This document shows, one piece after another, positions 18,947 through 25,125 of a stretch of DNA of 64,000 nt. The stretch comes from a virus (taxonomy: Duplodnaviria; Caudoviricetes). The DNA is taken from positions 32,168 through 96,167 of IMG/VR virus record IMGVR_UViG_3300032237_000764; one strand, written 5' to 3'. The translations under genes were made by a program, and so were the position numbers. How positions within the stretch are numbered: position 1 is the stretch's first letter; each line of letters starts with the position of its first letter. Below the pieces are notes generated by a model, which was given only the letters and a program-made list of their open reading frames with translations, had not been told where the DNA came from and made no database searches.

Positions 18947-20260
18947 TTATATTTTATTCAAATTGGGTAATTCAATCTTTTTGAGTTTTGGCAATACAAT
19001 TTTCTTTTCAATTGCAAATTCTGGAACATATCTGTCTAAATAGTTATGCAGAATTTTATCAGTGGCTTCCATGCTGAATTTTTCCATATTTTCGATACGC
19101 AATTTTTCAGCATTGTCTTTGATAGATTGTGTTAAATTATAAAACATGGTTTTAAACTTATCTTCAGCTAGACCGTATGAAACAGTGAACCAACTGCTTT
19201 CTTTAATAATCCATTCATTTGCAGATGCAGGATCAACTTGTTTTACATTTCCTTGCAATAATTGAGCATATTTTGGATTCAAGAAATCCAAATGTCCACT
19301 CCAATTACTTGCTAAAATTGGCTTGCCGCTCAAACTTGCAAGCAACAATGGATGTCCATAACCTTCGCCGTGTGTGAAACTAACGTGTGCTTTAATCTTT
19401 TCATGATTAAAAAGAGCATTCATTTCTACATCACTAAGTTCTCCGTGTAACAGATATACACTTGGCAAATCACCACCAACTTCTTTTTTAATTGCGGCAA
19501 TACGCGCCAAACATGCATCTCTATCTGTAATAGAGAAATTCACTCCGCTTGTTTTCAAAATCAAGCAAGGGCGTTCGCCCTTACGATCTTTGAATGTATT
19601 ACAGAATGTTTTGATCAAGTTACCAATATCTTTACGATCATTATATAATCCGTTGAAATTTGTCCATTGACCAACAAACAAAAATGCAAAGTTTTCAGAA
19701 ATATTACTTAATGCAGCTTCTACAGTAGCAATCTTTTCATCAGTCTTTTTAAATATTTTTGTATCTGCTCCCCACGGAGTAACTTCCATTGGTTTGCTCA
19801 TTAATAGTGGCTCAGTACGTCCATCTGGAAAATTCTTAACAAAATTAGTTTTTTCAAAAATTTCTTTTGAAAATGTGCTAGTTACAAAATTTACATTCAT
19901 CCGATTCAAACCTTCAAGCCAATCCCCACGTGCAATAGTAGTTTCAATACCAGCAGTCATGCCAATATTATATTTTGCAGGTGCTTGAAATTCATTCGGA
20001 ATTGTCATTTGAATGAATATTTCTGGTTGTTTTTGTAATGGTGATCGTAAAATGCGATTTCCCAATTCAATCGCTTCATGATCATTCGGATCAATATCAG
20101 CAACATTGAGTTTGCGAGGCGTACCACCCCAAGGAGTAGGAATGATAAATAGTTCAAATTTGTTATATCTTAACAAGCTTTTTCCCACTGCCATTGCCCA
20201 TTCACCATATCCACTGCGAGTAAAAATAGGACTTTGAAATATACAAATTGGTTTGCTCAT
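18947..20260 (-). CDS. GT-B (GT4-like) glycosyltransferase
   Basis: RSGYG, FLFVGQW, DRKD, HGEGYGHPLL. Confidence 0.82.
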   Translation of the reverse strand: MSKPICIFQSPIFTRSGYGEWAMAVGKSLLRYNKFELFIIPTPWGGTPRKLNVADIDPNDHEAIELGNRILRSPLQKQPEIFIQMTIPNEFQAPAKYNIGMTAGIETTIARGDWLEGLNRMNVNFVTSTFSKEIFEKTNFVKNFPDGRTEPLLMSKPMEVTPWGADTKIFKKTDEKIATVEAALSNISENFAFLFVGQWTNFNGLYNDRKDIGNLIKTFCNTFKDRKGERPCLILKTSGVNFSITDRDACLARIAAIKKEVGGDLPSVYLLHGELSDVEMNALFNHEKIKAHVSFTHGEGYGHPLLLASLSGKPILASNWSGHLDFLNPKYAQLLQGNVKQVDPASANEWIIKESSWFTVSYGLAEDKFKTMFYNLTQSIKDNAEKLRIENMEKFSMEATDKILHNYLDRYVPEFAIEKKIVLPKLKKIELPNLNKI

Positions 20261-20583
20261 AGGTTATTTTCCTTTTCTTTCATTAAATCACTATATTTCT
20301 TTTCTGAAGTATACACAGGATTTTTCTTATAATTTTTAATCATATCAACCAATGTTTCTTCTGGAACAATTGGAGTATTGCCTGACTCATCATTGACATT
20401 AAAATTTAAATTTGTAAATTTTAATTTTGCTTCCAATATTTTTTCTTTATTTTTAATAGTTTCATATATTATTATTTTACTATCATTTAATATACCAGAA
20501 TTTAATATACTATTAACTGTGAGAAATTCCCACAGTTCAATTATTAAATTATAATTTCCAGAAACATATATTTTATTTTTCAT
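20257..20583 (-). CDS. Hypothetical protein
   Basis: 108-aa ORF coupled to both neighbours. Confidence 0.5.
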   Translation of the reverse strand: MKNKIYVSGNYNLIIELWEFLTVNSILNSGILNDSKIIIYETIKNKEKILEAKLKFTNLNFNVNDESGNTPIVPEETLVDMIKNYKKNPVYTSEKKYSDLMKEKENNL

Positions 20584-21265
20584 ACCACCATTTAATATTT
20601 TTTATTTTTTCTTCAAATTGATTTATATCTAATGCATTTTTAAATGAATTTACACCAAAACAACACCATACAACATTTTTTATAATATAACCCTTTTTAG
20701 GATTTAATCTATCAATTGATGGCGCATCCCATCGTTGGAATCCCATATATTTTCCAGATGATACCATTTTAATTTTAGTATAAAAACAATCCCCGTTTTG
20801 TGCATTCCATAAATTTATTAAATATTTTGGAGTCAGATTAAAGTTGACGTTTTTTATTTTTGCTTGTTTTTTAATTGCATAACATCTTTTGGTAATATAT
20901 TTTTCAATATTAGTGTAAAATAAAGTTTTATAGGCTTTTAATCTTTTTTTTTCACACTTAATTACGGACGGATGTGAATTGAAACAGTTTTTACATAATT
21001 TTCCTACATTTCCAGATGTATTTTTATTTTTTGGAAATTCTTCTAATTTTTTCCAAATTTTACATTTAAAACAGTGTTTTGTATTTCCTATTACACTTTT
21101 ACATTGATGTAATTTTTGAATATATCTATATTCCCGTAAAAATATTTCGTTACATCCGAAACATTTTACAACTACTTTATGATGTGAACCGGGACTCAAT
21201 AAAGAACTATCATAACCAAACTTTTCCAGTGTTAGTTTTTCTACTAATTGTATTTTATTTCTCAT
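20573..21265 (-). CDS. HNH-like homing endonuclease with Zn-finger N-terminus
   Basis: CxxC pairs; C-terminal APSIDRLNPKKGY..NVVWCC..VN..K. Confidence 0.72.
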   Translation of the reverse strand: MRNKIQLVEKLTLEKFGYDSSLLSPGSHHKVVVKCFGCNEIFLREYRYIQKLHQCKSVIGNTKHCFKCKIWKKLEEFPKNKNTSGNVGKLCKNCFNSHPSVIKCEKKRLKAYKTLFYTNIEKYITKRCYAIKKQAKIKNVNFNLTPKYLINLWNAQNGDCFYTKIKMVSSGKYMGFQRWDAPSIDRLNPKKGYIIKNVVWCCFGVNSFKNALDINQFEEKIKNIKWWYEK

Positions 21266-21305: not shown

Positions 21306-21893
21306 TTACGATGTGCTACCAAATCCACCTTCACCACGCTGTGTTGTATCCAATGCATCAACCAAATAAAACTCAGCATGTTCAACTTTGGTAATTTTCA
21401 ATTGACAAATTTTGTCACCTTTCTTATAAATCTTATCAAGATTAGGTTTTCCTACAATTTTAGAACTGATACCAGATTGATTACCATCTGATGTTGGAAC
21501 ATAAATAAAATCTTCGGGTTGCCAAATATATTTGAATCTTACAAGAATTTCGCCACGATAATCGGCATCAATCAATCCAATACTATTTGCAAGTACAAGA
21601 TTATATTTGCTGACGCTACTGCGTGGCATAGCCAATACATCATAATCAATATCTAATGGACTTGATGTACCACCAGTCCATACTTTATCTTTTTGAACAG
21701 CAATTCGAAGATTAGTTTTATATTGAATATAATCTATACTCTCATATACATTTTTTGATTCTCCGTGTAGTTTACCTACTATTTCAGGGTCACTAGTTGC
21801 GATAATATCGTAACCAGTGGATCTTTCGGTTGCCGCTTTTGGCAGTGCTGCAACATTATTATATGTTTCATTTTTTAATACTTTAATTTTCAT
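21306..21893 (-). CDS. dut: Trimeric dUTPase
   Basis: GYD, PRSS, GLIDADYRGE, RGEGGFGST. Confidence 0.93.
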   Translation of the reverse strand: MKIKVLKNETYNNVAALPKAATERSTGYDIIATSDPEIVGKLHGESKNVYESIDYIQYKTNLRIAVQKDKVWTGGTSSPLDIDYDVLAMPRSSVSKYNLVLANSIGLIDADYRGEILVRFKYIWQPEDFIYVPTSDGNQSGISSKIVGKPNLDKIYKKGDKICQLKITKVEHAEFYLVDALDTTQRGEGGFGSTS

Positions 21894-21934: not shown

Positions 21935-22939
21935 TTATTGTGCTGAATTAAATGCATCTGCAAGTTCTGATTGAATTTTTAATTTATCAATCGTTGGAAT
22001 AGGAACACCGATTTTATTGAATGGTTGTTCTTGACCAATCAATTGTTCGGGTTTGAATACACCAAAAGATGGTGATGGTACAAAGTGTTCAATAGTATAA
22101 TCCATTGCTTTGATGAATTGAGCGCACATATTCTTACTATTCAATCCACCTTCTTCACATGCCCATCGACGACCTTCTAATCCTGCGGTTTTACGCTTCT
22201 CTGGACCAGCAAGATACCAATACATAATTGCTTCAGCGGCATCTTCCCAAGTGCAAATATCATCAAAAATATAAGGAGTTGGTGGACTACCTTGAATTGA
22301 ACGAGCAGTAGGATGTACAGGTTTTGCCCAAATACCATGTTTTTTATACTTGCCTGTATTATTGGTTCCAAACTCAGCAGTAAATTCGATGGGATTACCA
22401 TTGTCATTCAATTGACCTATTTGATCTTGTAATCCACCAGTGACATTTACAATAACAGGTGTGCCGCACATAATGCTTTCACAAATACTCAAACCAAAAC
22501 CTTCGTTGCTGCTGATTAGAATGGTTACATTTGCAATATTATACATTGCACACATGTCTTCTGGAGTCATACGACTTTCATCAATAACAACTTTATAATT
22601 TGGACACAATGCTTGAATAACTGCGGGCAAATCAGTACCTGCATCTTGTACTGCTTCAGTATGCAATACCAATACACATTTATCTGCTTGCTCTGGTGTT
22701 AAATTATCACAAAATGCTCGAAATGCCAAAATAGTATTGCTGGTCTTCTTGCGCTGAACATTTCGACTATTGTGAAACAATACAAAGTCAAATTGTTTAT
22801 CTCCAAACAATTGCTTTTTCTTTTCACGTATGCGTTTATCATTGGTGTCCAATGGCTTGAACATTACACTATCAATACCATGTGGTACATAATGTAACAA
22901 ATGTTTATTTACAAATTGATTATTAATTTTAAATGGCAT
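21935..22939 (-). CDS. GT-B (GT4-like) glycosyltransferase, C-terminal part
   Basis: YVPHGID, SRNVQRK, SSNEGFGLS..ES, GGLQDQ. Confidence 0.85.
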   Translation of the reverse strand: MPFKINNQFVNKHLLHYVPHGIDSVMFKPLDTNDKRIREKKKQLFGDKQFDFVLFHNSRNVQRKKTSNTILAFRAFCDNLTPEQADKCVLVLHTEAVQDAGTDLPAVIQALCPNYKVVIDESRMTPEDMCAMYNIANVTILISSNEGFGLSICESIMCGTPVIVNVTGGLQDQIGQLNDNGNPIEFTAEFGTNNTGKYKKHGIWAKPVHPTARSIQGSPPTPYIFDDICTWEDAAEAIMYWYLAGPEKRKTAGLEGRRWACEEGGLNSKNMCAQFIKAMDYTIEHFVPSPSFGVFKPEQLIGQEQPFNKIGVPIPTIDKLKIQSELADAFNSAQ

Positions 22940-22946
22940 AAATTCC

Positions 22947-23540
22947 TTAATATTTTACTAAATTACCGTTTTTATCATAATATCCGTCCACGGCAATACA
23001 ATTTTCTGGCCGTAGAACCCATTTATTAATGTTGTCTGTTTGTTTGCTAATAGCAAATAAAGCATCACAACTTTCATATGCTTGCTTGTTCCACATTGGA
23101 TATGGCAAATCGTCCCAAATATCCAAATAAGTCAATGGAATTTTTTTGCGTATCTGATTTTCAATTGCATACAACCAACCCCAATAACGCGGATCGGTAA
23201 AATGCATAATTGCATCAGGCTTTTCAGCTTCCATCACAGCAAATAGCATATTTTCATTGCCATATCCATCAGTTGGATATAATCGAACATATGCATCTTT
23301 AATTTTTACTTGTTCATTGGTTGCTTGTGACAAATCGACAACTTTACCACTTTCAGGATGTTTGACTGCACCTGCAATTTGTACCCAATCATAATGATGT
23401 ACTGTTCCCAATACCAATTCACGACTCATGGTAGCAATACCCGAATGCATTCTCAATTACAAATCGTCACTCAGAAGAAGAATTTTCTTCTTGTGACGAT
23501 TTGCCGCCTCCTTAACAGCTATGTTTTGTATATTATTCAT
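22947..23540 (-). CDS. GT-B glycosyltransferase N-terminal part, interrupted by an in-frame TAA at codon 28 (TTG-TAA-TTG)
   Basis: ATG 23540 reads MNNIQNIAVKEAANRHKKKILLLSDDL*LRMHSGIATMSRE in one frame; later FTDPRYW and IWDDLP. Confidence 0.78.
23460..23504 (-). promoter_or_regulatory. mRNA hairpin (11 bp + 7 bp) ending exactly at the TTG before the internal stop
   Basis: CAAAUCGUCAC-AAGAAGA-AAAU-UCUUCUU-CUGA-GUGACGAUUUG, followed by UAA. Confidence 0.75.
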
Positions 23541-24536
23541 AATATGTTGTTTAGTATTCCGTTGTCATTGAAAATATGAATTTGATATTCATATCCTGCT
23601 GCAATGGCAGCGTGTTGTTTCAATAACATTTGTTTTTTATGTAAATTGTATGTAAAAATAGATTTTACATCAATTAGTAAATTCTTTGAAGGAATAAAAA
23701 AATCAGGGCAATGCGTCTTAGATTTTCCATTCTCTATATATTTTATTTTTTGGTAATAATTGTCTATCGTTTACAATTTCAAGCTCATTATATGTTTGTA
23801 GTAAACGGTCAAGTTCAAATGGTTCGTATCCCTGACATTTAACAATTTTACCAGATGGTAAAGTATATAACTTCCATCTATATTTTATCGTATTGGAAAA
23901 CTGTGGATTCTCTGCTCCATATTTTTCCATCATGGTTTTTTTGGTTTTTTCTTTTACTTCATCTAGTTGAAATGCATTTTCAACACCATATTTGGTAGAC
24001 ATGGTATTTTTATATGAATTACTTCTTTGTTTGATGTTTTCGGGATTCCATGAATTTTTTATTGACGATGCATTTTTCTTGACTCTTACATCGGTTTGCT
24101 TTGTCAAACCGACATTCCACGCATCAAATGATTTTCTCTTTTCATGGAGAGTGTTATTTTTTACAAATGGACTGGTATGGTTATGTATATAATCATGAAA
24201 TCCCGTTTCTAGATTATTAAATGATGTTTGCATGTTACATCCACATTTGCATAATTGTGGAATATTGTGTAAATAATATTTTAAATAATACACATCTAAA
24301 TATATAGAATGGGTATTTTTCAAATGTCTAGACATGCTATTCGATCCATTTACATTTTTTTGACATATTAAACACACATAACTTTTAATTTGTGGTGTCC
24401 GTTTTCCAATGACAGCGGTAGGAAATAATTTAATATATTCAGTCAATGAAATGTTATGTGCTCGTTTAAGATGAGAACCATTGATTCTGGTTTTCATTTC
24501 TAATTGACACAATTCACATGTAACAACCTTATTCAT
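23537..24536 (-). pseudogene. PD-(D/E)xK homing endonuclease with Zn fingers, frameshifted near 23750
   Basis: C2H2 and CKCGC motifs and KYGVEN repeats. Removing one A from the A6 run continues into HCPDFFIPSKNLLIDVKS, ending at a TGA that overlaps the next ATG. Confidence 0.72.
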
Positions 24537-24691
24537 TTTTTTACTTCGATGCTGCCCGTGATTTGTGCCAATATTGATTTTTCAACAAACTTATTCATTT
24601 TATATCCGTTTTTATCACAAAAAGATTTAAGAATATCTCGTATTTCTTTTGAAATTTGTATTGACCATTTGTTATCAGTATTTCTATTCAC
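24533..24691 (-). CDS. Small ribbon-helix-helix-like protein (absent from ORF track)
   Basis: NKWSIQISKEIRDILKSFCDKNGYKMNKFVEKSI; stop overlaps the HEG start (ATGA). Confidence 0.6.
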   Translation of the reverse strand: MNRNTDNKWSIQISKEIRDILKSFCDKNGYKMNKFVEKSILAQITGSIEVKK

Positions 24692-24885
24692 ACCAATATA
24701 TATCATCAAATCTTAGAAAAGTATGAAAAATCTTATTTATTTTTACGATACGCATTTAAGGTATCCTCAAATTTCGTAATGTCGGTTTTTATATTAGTGT
24801 CTAATAATGACATTTCTATTATTCTAATTTTTTTTTAACACCGGATAATTGTAACTTTAATGAGTTTATTGTGTCTTTTGCAATA

Positions 24886-25125
24886 TTAAACAACCTCCTT
24901 ATTGGTTGATCCGGTGATGTTTAATACGGCAGTTTGAGCCGCTTCACTAAGCTGTGGAATGTTAAAATTGTATATTTGACTACGAAATGTATCGTCATTC
25001 AAATACAAATACATGCATCTATTAACTAAATCTTGTAAGTAAAATTTGTTTTTTACATTCTTGATTTTAAAGGAGTCATATAACTGTTTGTCTACCTTAA
25101 CGGTAGTAATACTATTGTTCTTCAT
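24886..25125 (-). CDS. Small RHH-like DNA-binding protein
   Basis: TTVKVDKQLYDSFK..LQDLVNRCMYLYL beta-alpha-alpha pattern. Confidence 0.55.
   Translation of the reverse strand: MKNNSITTVKVDKQLYDSFKIKNVKNKFYLQDLVNRCMYLYLNDDTFRSQIYNFNIPQLSEAAQTAVLNITGSTNKEVV

Follow-up and report, generated by a model that had tools for sequence, protein, structure and literature searches.

The interrupted glycosyltransferase gene

The 64,000-nucleotide (nt) stretch of viral DNA analysed here, called the window, belongs to a lake phage and comes from IMG/VR record IMGVR_UViG_3300032237_000764. It carries on its minus strand a glycosyltransferase (GT) gene that is broken near its 5' end, where a cassette with an endonuclease gene is inserted, by a stop codon set between two identical leucine codons. 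The GT frame begins at ATG 23540-38, which overlaps TGA 23539-37 of an upstream nuclease frame as ATGA, and reads MNNIQNIAVKEAANRHKKKILLLSDDL, followed by TAA 23459-57, TTG 23456-54 and AGA ATG CAT TCG GGT. TTG 23456-54 itself opens a 169-codon frame, (L)RMHSGIATMSRE.... A preliminary description of this DNA had placed the ATG and the TTG-TAA-TTG of the GT at these positions, all of which hold to the base. The interrupted gene comprises the following elements.

23457-23540, minus strand: 27-codon frame, made up of the 16-residue N-terminal extension MNNIQNIAVKEAANRH supplied by the cassette, the GT's own first β-strand (β1) KKKILLLSDDL, and TAA
23460-23462, minus strand: candidate take-off codon UUG (Leu)
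23454-23459, minus strand: 6-nt coding gap, the UAA stop 23459-57 plus the candidate landing codon UUG 23456-54
22947-23453, minus strand: rest of the GT-B N-domain, from the invariant Arg codon AGA 23453-51 to TAA 22949-47
21935-22939, minus strand: GT-B C-domain (Glycos_transf_1; PF00534, E 1.2e-11), an open reading frame (ORF) of its own in a different frame

The enzyme shows the two Rossmann-like domains of a GT-B (GT4-like) glycosyltransferase, through its PF00534 C-domain and through the structural matches of its N-domain. Among the related loci compared, which are designated by L-numbers, L005 is the closest intact relative of the window GT. An AlphaFold (AF2) model of the intact L005 N-domain has a predicted local distance difference test (pLDDT) score of 88 and places β1 at residues 4-11 (KKILLLSD), and its top Foldseek matches are the GT-B/GT4 enzymes PimB', MshA and BshA. 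According to this model, the break is located in the β1-α1 loop of the N-domain. The window GT is also split between its N- and C-domains at 22939-22957 (stop 22949-47, ATG 22939). An identical split occurs in Microcystis phage Mel-JY01, the fused form occurs in Flavobacterium phage immuto and many metagenomic relatives, and L088 and L089 have an additional ORF of 50 amino acids (aa) at the joint.

The 6 nt in the window are extra, as 79 of 80 related IMG/VR contigs carry an uninterrupted KKKILLLSDD-L-RMHSG. These intact relatives begin M-x-KKKILLLSDD, with the start codon immediately 5' of the lysines. GenBank phages contain distant homologues only, in Microcystis phage Mel-JY01 and Flavobacterium phage immuto, and both are uninterrupted. 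The 6 nt are also real at the level of assembled contigs. An independent Logan contig of 69 kb and depth 13.9, probably from the same sample as the window, is identical across the stretch and shows no indel. In a different study, a contig spanning 23251-23713 (87% identical overall) has 62 substitutions and 0 gaps and is identical at 23446-23504. An assembly error is thus excluded by matching Logan contigs, these being contigs rather than raw reads and run X1 being probably the source sample. A third run (X3) has the same hairpin followed by a 5-nt variant, TAATG.

Interrupted alleles, matched codons and the hairpin

Interrupted alleles of the gene were collected by scanning IMG/VR, JGI/ENA metagenomes and GTDB genomes with degenerate patterns (KKI-hydrophobic-x-DD-x, then a stop). 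The scans gave 33 distinct alleles, and one more long-gap allele lies in a contig of a metagenome-assembled genome. Counted after the take-off codon and through the landing codon, the gap measures 5, 6, 9, 10, 13, 39, 40 or 41 nt and so falls in all three frames, while all 33 alleles resume at an Arg codon that is invariant in 33 aligned homologues. The 6-nt in-frame gap is found in the window and 12 other alleles. UAA 23459-57 stands directly 3' of the take-off codon in the window; across the family a stop was set by the search pattern and hence is not independent evidence, and all three types of stop codon occur.

The in-frame alleles invite one account of the break, readthrough, in which UAA would be decoded as sense to give SDDL-x-L-RMHSG with two extra loop residues. 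Readthrough fails family-wide because sister alleles have out-of-frame gaps of 5, 10, 13, 40 and 41 nt; the use of all three stops also speaks against it, as does the lack of other stop recoding among the window ORFs examined, and it is scarcely credible as the explanation. An altered genetic code or general stop recoding is ruled out by the gaps that are not multiples of 3 and, again, by the three stops in use. Frameshifting by −1 or +1 was rejected as well: the 10- and 13-nt gaps have no slippery site, and a −1 shift is conceivable only in L186 (C-CCG-UGA) and in the TAATG alleles. L186 (3564-3610), which has an intact endonuclease, reads GAC GAC CCG UGA CA AGA, with a Pro take-off codon that is unique among the alleles. 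Its reading could continue either by a hop of 5 nt (CCG to ACA) or, at the stop, by a −1 slip on C-CCG.

The codons on the two sides of the gap correspond. In 25 of the 33 alleles take-off and landing codons fall into one codon box; shuffling the landing codons gives 11.4 ± 2.5, and none of 20000 shuffles attains 25. Fourteen alleles pair Leu with Leu and 12 pair Ile with Ile. A G·U pair at the first position would be retained in three Ile-to-Val pairs (AUU/AUC to GUC/GUU) and in one CUG-to-UUG pair. The four other mismatches are all in 5-nt gaps, where the stop supplies its A as base 1 of the landing codon, and positions 2-3 continue to match the take-off codon.

The reading frames around the gap are maintained. 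Downstream of it, the ORF is intact in all 24 alleles whose locus reaches the ORF end, and in the remaining 9 it is open to the end of the locus; its length is 157-172 aa in split genes and 449-495 aa in fused genes. Upstream of it, the unconstrained codon 5' of D-D encodes S, C, A, G or T only, AGT and TCT both being used. This pattern of substitution suggests that β1 is under protein-level constraint.

A stable hairpin precedes the gap, and a Shine-Dalgarno (SD)-like motif precedes the hairpin.

23459-23504, minus strand: 5' hairpin, with an outer stem 23504-23493 / 23470-23459 (12 bp) and an inner stem 23491-85 / 23479-73 (7 bp)
23507-23513, minus strand: SD-like AAGGAGG, 2 nt 5' of the hairpin

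The S-D-D-L codons form the 3' arm of this hairpin, the arm finishing at the take-off codon, and the U of UAA takes part in the closing G·U. The preliminary description had drawn stems of 11 bp and 7 bp; the inner stem stands as drawn, while the outer one grows to 12 bp with that closing pair. Over 106 nt the minimum free energy of the window hairpin is −28.2 kcal/mol (z = −3.88), a value matched by 1 of 200 shuffles. Over the 77 nt upstream of the stop, the 33 interrupted alleles fold with −24.2 ± 3.4 kcal/mol and 54 distinct uninterrupted alleles with −5.6 ± 3.0 kcal/mol, the two ranges being disjoint. In the alleles that have the hairpin its 3' arm is made of x-D-D-X codons and ends −4 to +2 nt from the end of the take-off codon.

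The 5' arm, which lies in the non-conserved extension, tracks the synonymous codons of the 3' arm: CAAAUCGUCAC/GUGACGAUUUG in the window, AGAUCAUCUGA/UCAGAUGAUCU in L085 and GGUCAUCGCUUA/UAGGCGAUGACC in L161. Covariation was scored on ungapped alignments anchored on the stop, hence not fitted to the structure. In the Ile clade 91.4% of cells are paired and 6 pairs have changed on both sides, with 18-60% paired in slid controls; the window's class has 94.2% paired, 3 pairs changed on both sides and 39-68% in slid controls. Of the 33 interrupted alleles, 31 show covariation of the hairpin. The G·U pairs assign the structure to the sense RNA. Homologues were expected, if the preliminary description was right, to share the stop, the matched codons, a variable gap length and a covarying hairpin, and all four were found. 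The contrary case, an uninterrupted SDDLR with the same hairpin, was not: the 54 uninterrupted alleles have no hairpin. Their lack of it also disposes of the hairpin as a by-product of the Lys and Leu codons, which could account for the inner stem alone; the outer stem needs the 5' arm from the cassette. An intrinsic terminator was rejected too, since no T-run follows the hairpin and a terminator scan did not flag it.

All 16 Leu-clade hairpin alleles have the SD-like motif, at a distance of 1-7 nt 5' of the hairpin, and this element bears on the main rival to bypassing. A ribosome that stopped at UAA would free a 27-aa β1 peptide and restart at UUG with the aid of AAGGAGG, and the peptide and the truncated N-domain would assemble into a two-piece enzyme non-covalently. 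Such termination and reinitiation is possible at the TTG of the window allele because TTG can be a start codon. It fits the window and six other alleles, in which UUG (window, L162, L151) or AUG (the TAATG alleles) adjoins or overlaps the stop, and the motif in all 16 Leu-clade alleles would suit a hairpin-bridged ribosome-binding site. The GT is already split between N and C domains, and a dUTPase-like gene elsewhere in the window is likewise divided into two ORFs by a second endonuclease. Phage proteins that are split by endonucleases and bear tails do reassemble, MobA/gp39-gp60 and MobE/NrdA being the cases cited in 10.1101/2022.08.31.505936. What stands against reinitiation is mostly the rest of the family. 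ATG, GTG or TTG occurs between the stop and the invariant Arg in only 7 of 33 alleles; the other 26 have no canonical start there, their landing codons including CUA, CUC, CUU, GUC and GUU. The RV, RA and RL alleles have no downstream Met either, and six alleles show no start codon within the ~20 codons examined downstream. The short-gap Ile clade has no SD-like motif. Neither the codon matching nor the joint change of take-off and landing between Leu and Ile is predicted by reinitiation, and it would be unusual for the central β1 strand of a Rossmann-like domain to be supplied in trans. Overall, reinitiation is unlikely.

The alleles with gaps of 39-41 nt add two elements to this plan, which recall the take-off stem-loop and mini-SD of T4 gene 60: the gap has a GC-rich hairpin of its own, and an SD-like run of G lies 6-8 nt ahead of the landing codon. 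Five of them, L097, L121, L139, L140 and L216 in the Ile clade, read AUU, stop, a GC hairpin CCCCCUUG...CAAGGGGG, the G-run, and AUC or AUU. Flavobacterium phage immuto (L002, MW353175; 2935-3030) has an uninterrupted GT with an extension, MKEKFRYVKKEDR, that resembles that of the Ile-clade cassette, and a weak remnant hairpin of −12.6 kcal/mol. Its allele may once have had a gap that has since been lost.

The endonuclease cassette

Comparison with L005, which shares 93% amino-acid and about 85% nucleotide identity with the window, defines the insertion. Window 26185-24876 aligns with L005 1666-2972 and window 23495-21313 with L005 2968-5145, and the left-hand alignment ends at window 24876 (L005 2972), just past ATGCAAAA. 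The features of the insertion are these.

23496-24875, minus strand: cassette of ~1.38 kb, present in the window and absent from L005, inserted in the Lys codons at the GT 5' end
24894-24900, minus strand: relic of the GT's native SD sequence, AAGGAGG, at the left insertion junction
23718-24536, minus strand: endonuclease part 1, 272 aa, with C2H2-type zinc-finger-like motifs and a DUF7487 match (PF24308, E 1.6e-18)
23746-23751, minus strand: A6 run, one A more than in the in-frame L020 copy, which frameshifts the endonuclease gene
23537-23770, minus strand: C-terminal part of the endonuclease in the +1 frame, with the PD-(D/E)XK-like motif CPDFFIP...LLIDVKS, ending at TGA 23539-37

The relic of the native SD and start spans 24900-24881, and the insertion sits between it and the Lys codons. 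The native start is spoiled, ATG in L005 being ATTG in the window, where TTG 24883-81 opens a 5-codon stub, MQKTQ. The cassette thus swaps the start of the GT for a new N-terminal extension that is coupled translationally, through ATGA, to the endonuclease frame, and it adds the 5' arm of the hairpin.

The nuclease of the cassette falls in PHROG families labelled 'homing endonuclease' (phrog_3339, phrog_12131), and its C-terminal part matches DUF7487 positions 168-220 (E 1.1e-10). The Logan contig agrees with the window at the A-run 23746-23751, and the window gene is probably a pseudogene, decaying as T4 mobA does. A 58-aa ORF in the cassette (window 24533-24709, minus strand) overlaps the endonuclease start as ATGA and has the motif ...IxISKEIRDxLKxFCDKNGYK..., like that of small ORFs beside the GT in L086-L089, and may encode a small partner of the element that binds DNA. 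The same phage record has a second DUF7487 match outside the window, at G000:C1:4394-4786, within a 535-aa open frame.

The association of nuclease and gap extends beyond the window. The nuclease is present or absent at one and the same GT site with a patchy distribution, as free-standing homing endonucleases are, which is seen both in the 1.38-kb insertion and in a tree of the N-domain body, where interrupted alleles are interspersed among intact ones and the window is sister to the intact L005. DUF7487 genes adjoin 8 of the 8 alleles that retain one (window, L020, L164, L085/L090, L108, L144, L186). L086, L088 and L118 keep a DUF7487 C-terminal remnant only, and many other alleles are without any nuclease. 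Other nucleases lie directly upstream of gap alleles at the same GT codon: a Vsr-like one in L094, NUMOD3 in L096 and L167, and DUF4379 plus DUF723 in L129. The break is part of this mobile cassette, whose ~1.38-kb insertion relative to L005 carries the DUF7487 nuclease.

A cassette in decay could also have left nothing but a neutral or disabling scar, with the gene dead or giving only a truncated, inactive protein. The frameshift in the window endonuclease itself is in keeping with this, as is the second endonuclease of the window, a further selfish element in the genome. A dead gene is contradicted because the ORFs are intact, β1 is constrained and stem changes are compensatory. The downstream ORFs have kept their 157-172 or 449-495 aa over deep divergence, the β1 codons change synonymously (for example, Ser AGT or TCT) or to small residues only, and the compensatory changes maintain the hairpin. 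Moreover, the exact window allele recurs in the 87%-identical relative from another study. A scar is very unlikely.

The second endonuclease, 20573-21265 (minus strand, 230 aa), belongs to PHROG endonuclease VII/HNH families. It is inserted relative to L005 and splits the dUTPase-like gene, which is one ORF in L005 and in the window consists of 21306-21893 (195 aa, ending ...GGFGSTS), the endonuclease, and 20257-20583 (108 aa). The last ~40 residues of the 108-aa ORF are the original dUTPase-like C-terminus, preceded by a new 68-aa extension.

A probable translational bypass and its known counterparts

The insertion, the gap, the covarying hairpin, the matched codons, the intact downstream ORFs and the linkage to endonucleases are together best read as an endonuclease-borne programmed translational bypass that is not homologous to the T4 gene 60/MobA cassette. 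On sequence comparison this reading is probable, though by no means assured. A free-standing homing-endonuclease cassette would have entered the first codons of a phage GT4 (GT-B) gene, bringing a new start with the 16-residue extension, the 5' arm of the hairpin, and the six bases UAA UUG in the β1-α1 loop. Translation would start at AUG 23540 and pause when UUG (Leu) occupies the P site and UAA the A site, and the peptidyl-transfer RNA (tRNA) would hop over the stop from the take-off codon to the matched landing codon. Decoding would restart at AGA and give ...KKKILLLSDDL-RMHSG..., as in the uninterrupted homologues. As the ribosome takes off, the hairpin's 3' arm would lie in its messenger RNA (mRNA) exit path, with the 5' arm and inner stem-loop already outside; by re-pairing with the 5' arm it would pull the mRNA forward and prevent back-sliding. 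One tRNA can serve take-off and landing alike, UUG and UUG in the window. The gap is untranslatable and of frame-independent length, 5 to 41 nt with downstream ORFs intact. A peptidyl-tRNA hop would explain most of the alleles, yielding the protein that all intact homologues encode. We infer the hop, its efficiency, the driving role of the hairpin and an immunity role of the gap from these features.

By analogy with T4 MobA and gene 60, the gap would spoil the target of the endonuclease so that the carrier genome escapes cutting; the nuclease would cut the element-free allele and leave the carrier allele immune. The more likely course is that the gap exists to spoil this target and that the hop merely rescues the gene. 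The preliminary description had proposed a minimal programmed bypass in a phage GT, and the comparative signatures bear this out. It missed the cassette context, the break belonging to a homing-endonuclease insertion, and its view that the bypass 'controls' the GT is not sustained: nothing indicates control, and the analogy favours a spoiled target.

Several points weigh against the bypass. The landing UUG of the window is a legitimate start codon adjoining the stop, and in the closest cassette variant, TAATG (L020, L104, L165 and run X3), an AUG overlaps the stop, which is a textbook motif of translational coupling, and the landing codon is mismatched. Folding of the stem would bring AAGGAGG, which lies 5' of the hairpin, near UUG, an arrangement like that of a split ribosome-binding site. 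The driving role of the hairpin is uncertain, since a slide of 6 nt would put no more than a few pairs of the outer stem outside the ribosome. L096 and L167 lack the hairpin, both having a different extension and a NUMOD3-type neighbour. KKI..DD and the stop were required by the scan patterns, so these features are fixed by ascertainment, and shared ancestry among the alleles means that P-values and other statistics overstate independence. Finally, short unassisted stop-hops are described as low-level (10.1101/2024.12.09.627546). The case for bypass is weakest in three respects: that the hairpin drives the slide, that the gap confers immunity, and that UUG or AUG alleles such as that of the window hop rather than reinitiate.

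A broader proposal has about even chances of being right. The GT site would be a second, independently evolved natural family of efficient programmed bypassing, with a minimal core of three elements: a hairpin upstream whose 3' arm finishes at the take-off codon, then the stop, then a landing codon that matches. Hops of 5-13 nt would need no more, while the site grades up to 41 nt by the addition of a gap hairpin and an SD-like element, and several unrelated homing-endonuclease families would use it to spoil their own target while sparing the gene. Natural programmed bypassing in bacteria and phages amounts, in the literature surveyed, to one system, T4 gene 60 and its homologues, all of them in topoisomerase genes according to Manning & Atkins (10.1101/2022.08.31.505936). 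If the proposal is true, bypassing would be a recurrent solution for endonuclease cassettes, and a test system of very small size, about 100 nt including the 6-nt gap, would be at hand. It could be used to test the disputed idea that 5' mRNA pairing drives the mRNA forward, since the hairpin is here the conserved, covarying element. Phage annotations of the GT family are systematically wrong at the break site, as gene callers cut these glycosyltransferases short or divide them. Literature searches found no bypassing in glycosyltransferase genes, most subscription journals being outside their coverage.

The likeness to T4 gene 60 is extensive. The gene 60 bypass reportedly lies within a MobA homing-endonuclease element, as Bonocora et al. 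are said to have described in 2011. At both sites a cassette that carries an endonuclease has remade a conserved gene at its 5' end, lengthened the protein at its N terminus and left a stop-initiated gap in a conserved motif, with matched take-off and landing codons and an mRNA stem-loop 5' of take-off. T4 MobA and its bypass form a mobile cassette in which the gap guards against self-cleavage, and there the endonuclease decays or is replaced while the gap persists (Manning & Atkins, bioRxiv 10.1101/2022.08.31.505936). The GT-site endonuclease likewise decays or vanishes while the gap remains, and Vsr-like and NUMOD3 endonucleases occupy the same site. The long-gap GT alleles, whose gap has a hairpin and whose SD-like motif, 6-8 nt ahead of landing, may be compared with the mini-SD, are far closer in architecture to gene 60 than the short-gap alleles are, the five Ile-clade alleles above being the example.

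The differences are equally clear. The host gene is a GT4 glycosyltransferase and not a topoisomerase II, the endonuclease is DUF7487 and PD-(D/E)XK-like and not MobA, and no sequence homology was detected between the GT cassette and T4 gene 60/MobA, a cassette that the 2022 survey calls 'unique' (10.1101/2022.08.31.505936). GT gaps are mostly 5-13 nt as opposed to 50 nt. The short ones have no room for a take-off/A-site stem-loop, and in the window the take-off codon itself is on the 3' side of an upstream hairpin and not, as in gene 60, on the 5' side of a take-off stem-loop; a gap-internal hairpin occurs only in the 39-41 nt alleles. The window gap has no mini-SD of the gene 60 kind, about 6 nt 5' of the landing codon, its AAGGAGG sitting 5' of the hairpin. 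Pairing of the exiting mRNA has been proposed as a driver of bypassing in gene 60 (bioRxiv 10.1101/2024.12.09.627546). In the GT alleles the 5' hairpin is conserved and covaries, whereas the 5' stem-loop of gene 60 homologues is reported to be non-conserved.

Two other systems share some of these features. Byp elements in the mitochondria of Magnusiomyces capitatus are 27-55 nt long and GC-cluster-like (Lang et al. 2014, as cited in the literature surveyed). They resemble the GT gaps in being many, natural and of variable length, in tolerant matching of take-off and landing, and in spreading as mobile elements; they differ in being mitochondrial, in occurring in many genes and in having no endonuclease link, whereas the GT gaps occupy a single site in one phage gene family. 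UAAUG coupling and the split ribosome-binding site are likewise akin to the GT site, where a stop adjoins UUG or AUG and an SD-like motif is set apart by a stable hairpin. T4 gene 38 has a ribosome-binding site of this kind, split and bridged by a hairpin. Most GT alleles, in contrast, have no start at that position, and the codon there tracks the take-off codon instead.

A formal counterpart of the window is the synthetic stop-hopping that Weiss et al. in 1987 and O'Connor et al. in 1989 are said to have obtained in E. coli, also mentioned in 10.1101/2024.12.09.627546, in which one amino acid is specified by 9 nt. A stop flanked by two copies of one codon, and a peptidyl-tRNA hop of 6 nt, define that arrangement, and UUG-UAA-UUG has exactly this form. 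Those hops, however, were artificial, free of stimulatory signals and described as low-level, while the GT site is natural, conserved and linked to a strong, covarying hairpin, in a gene kept intact by selection. If the broader proposal holds, short stop-hopping and long bypass of the gene 60 type would be joined in one natural system, and covariation would lend support to a drive from the exiting mRNA.

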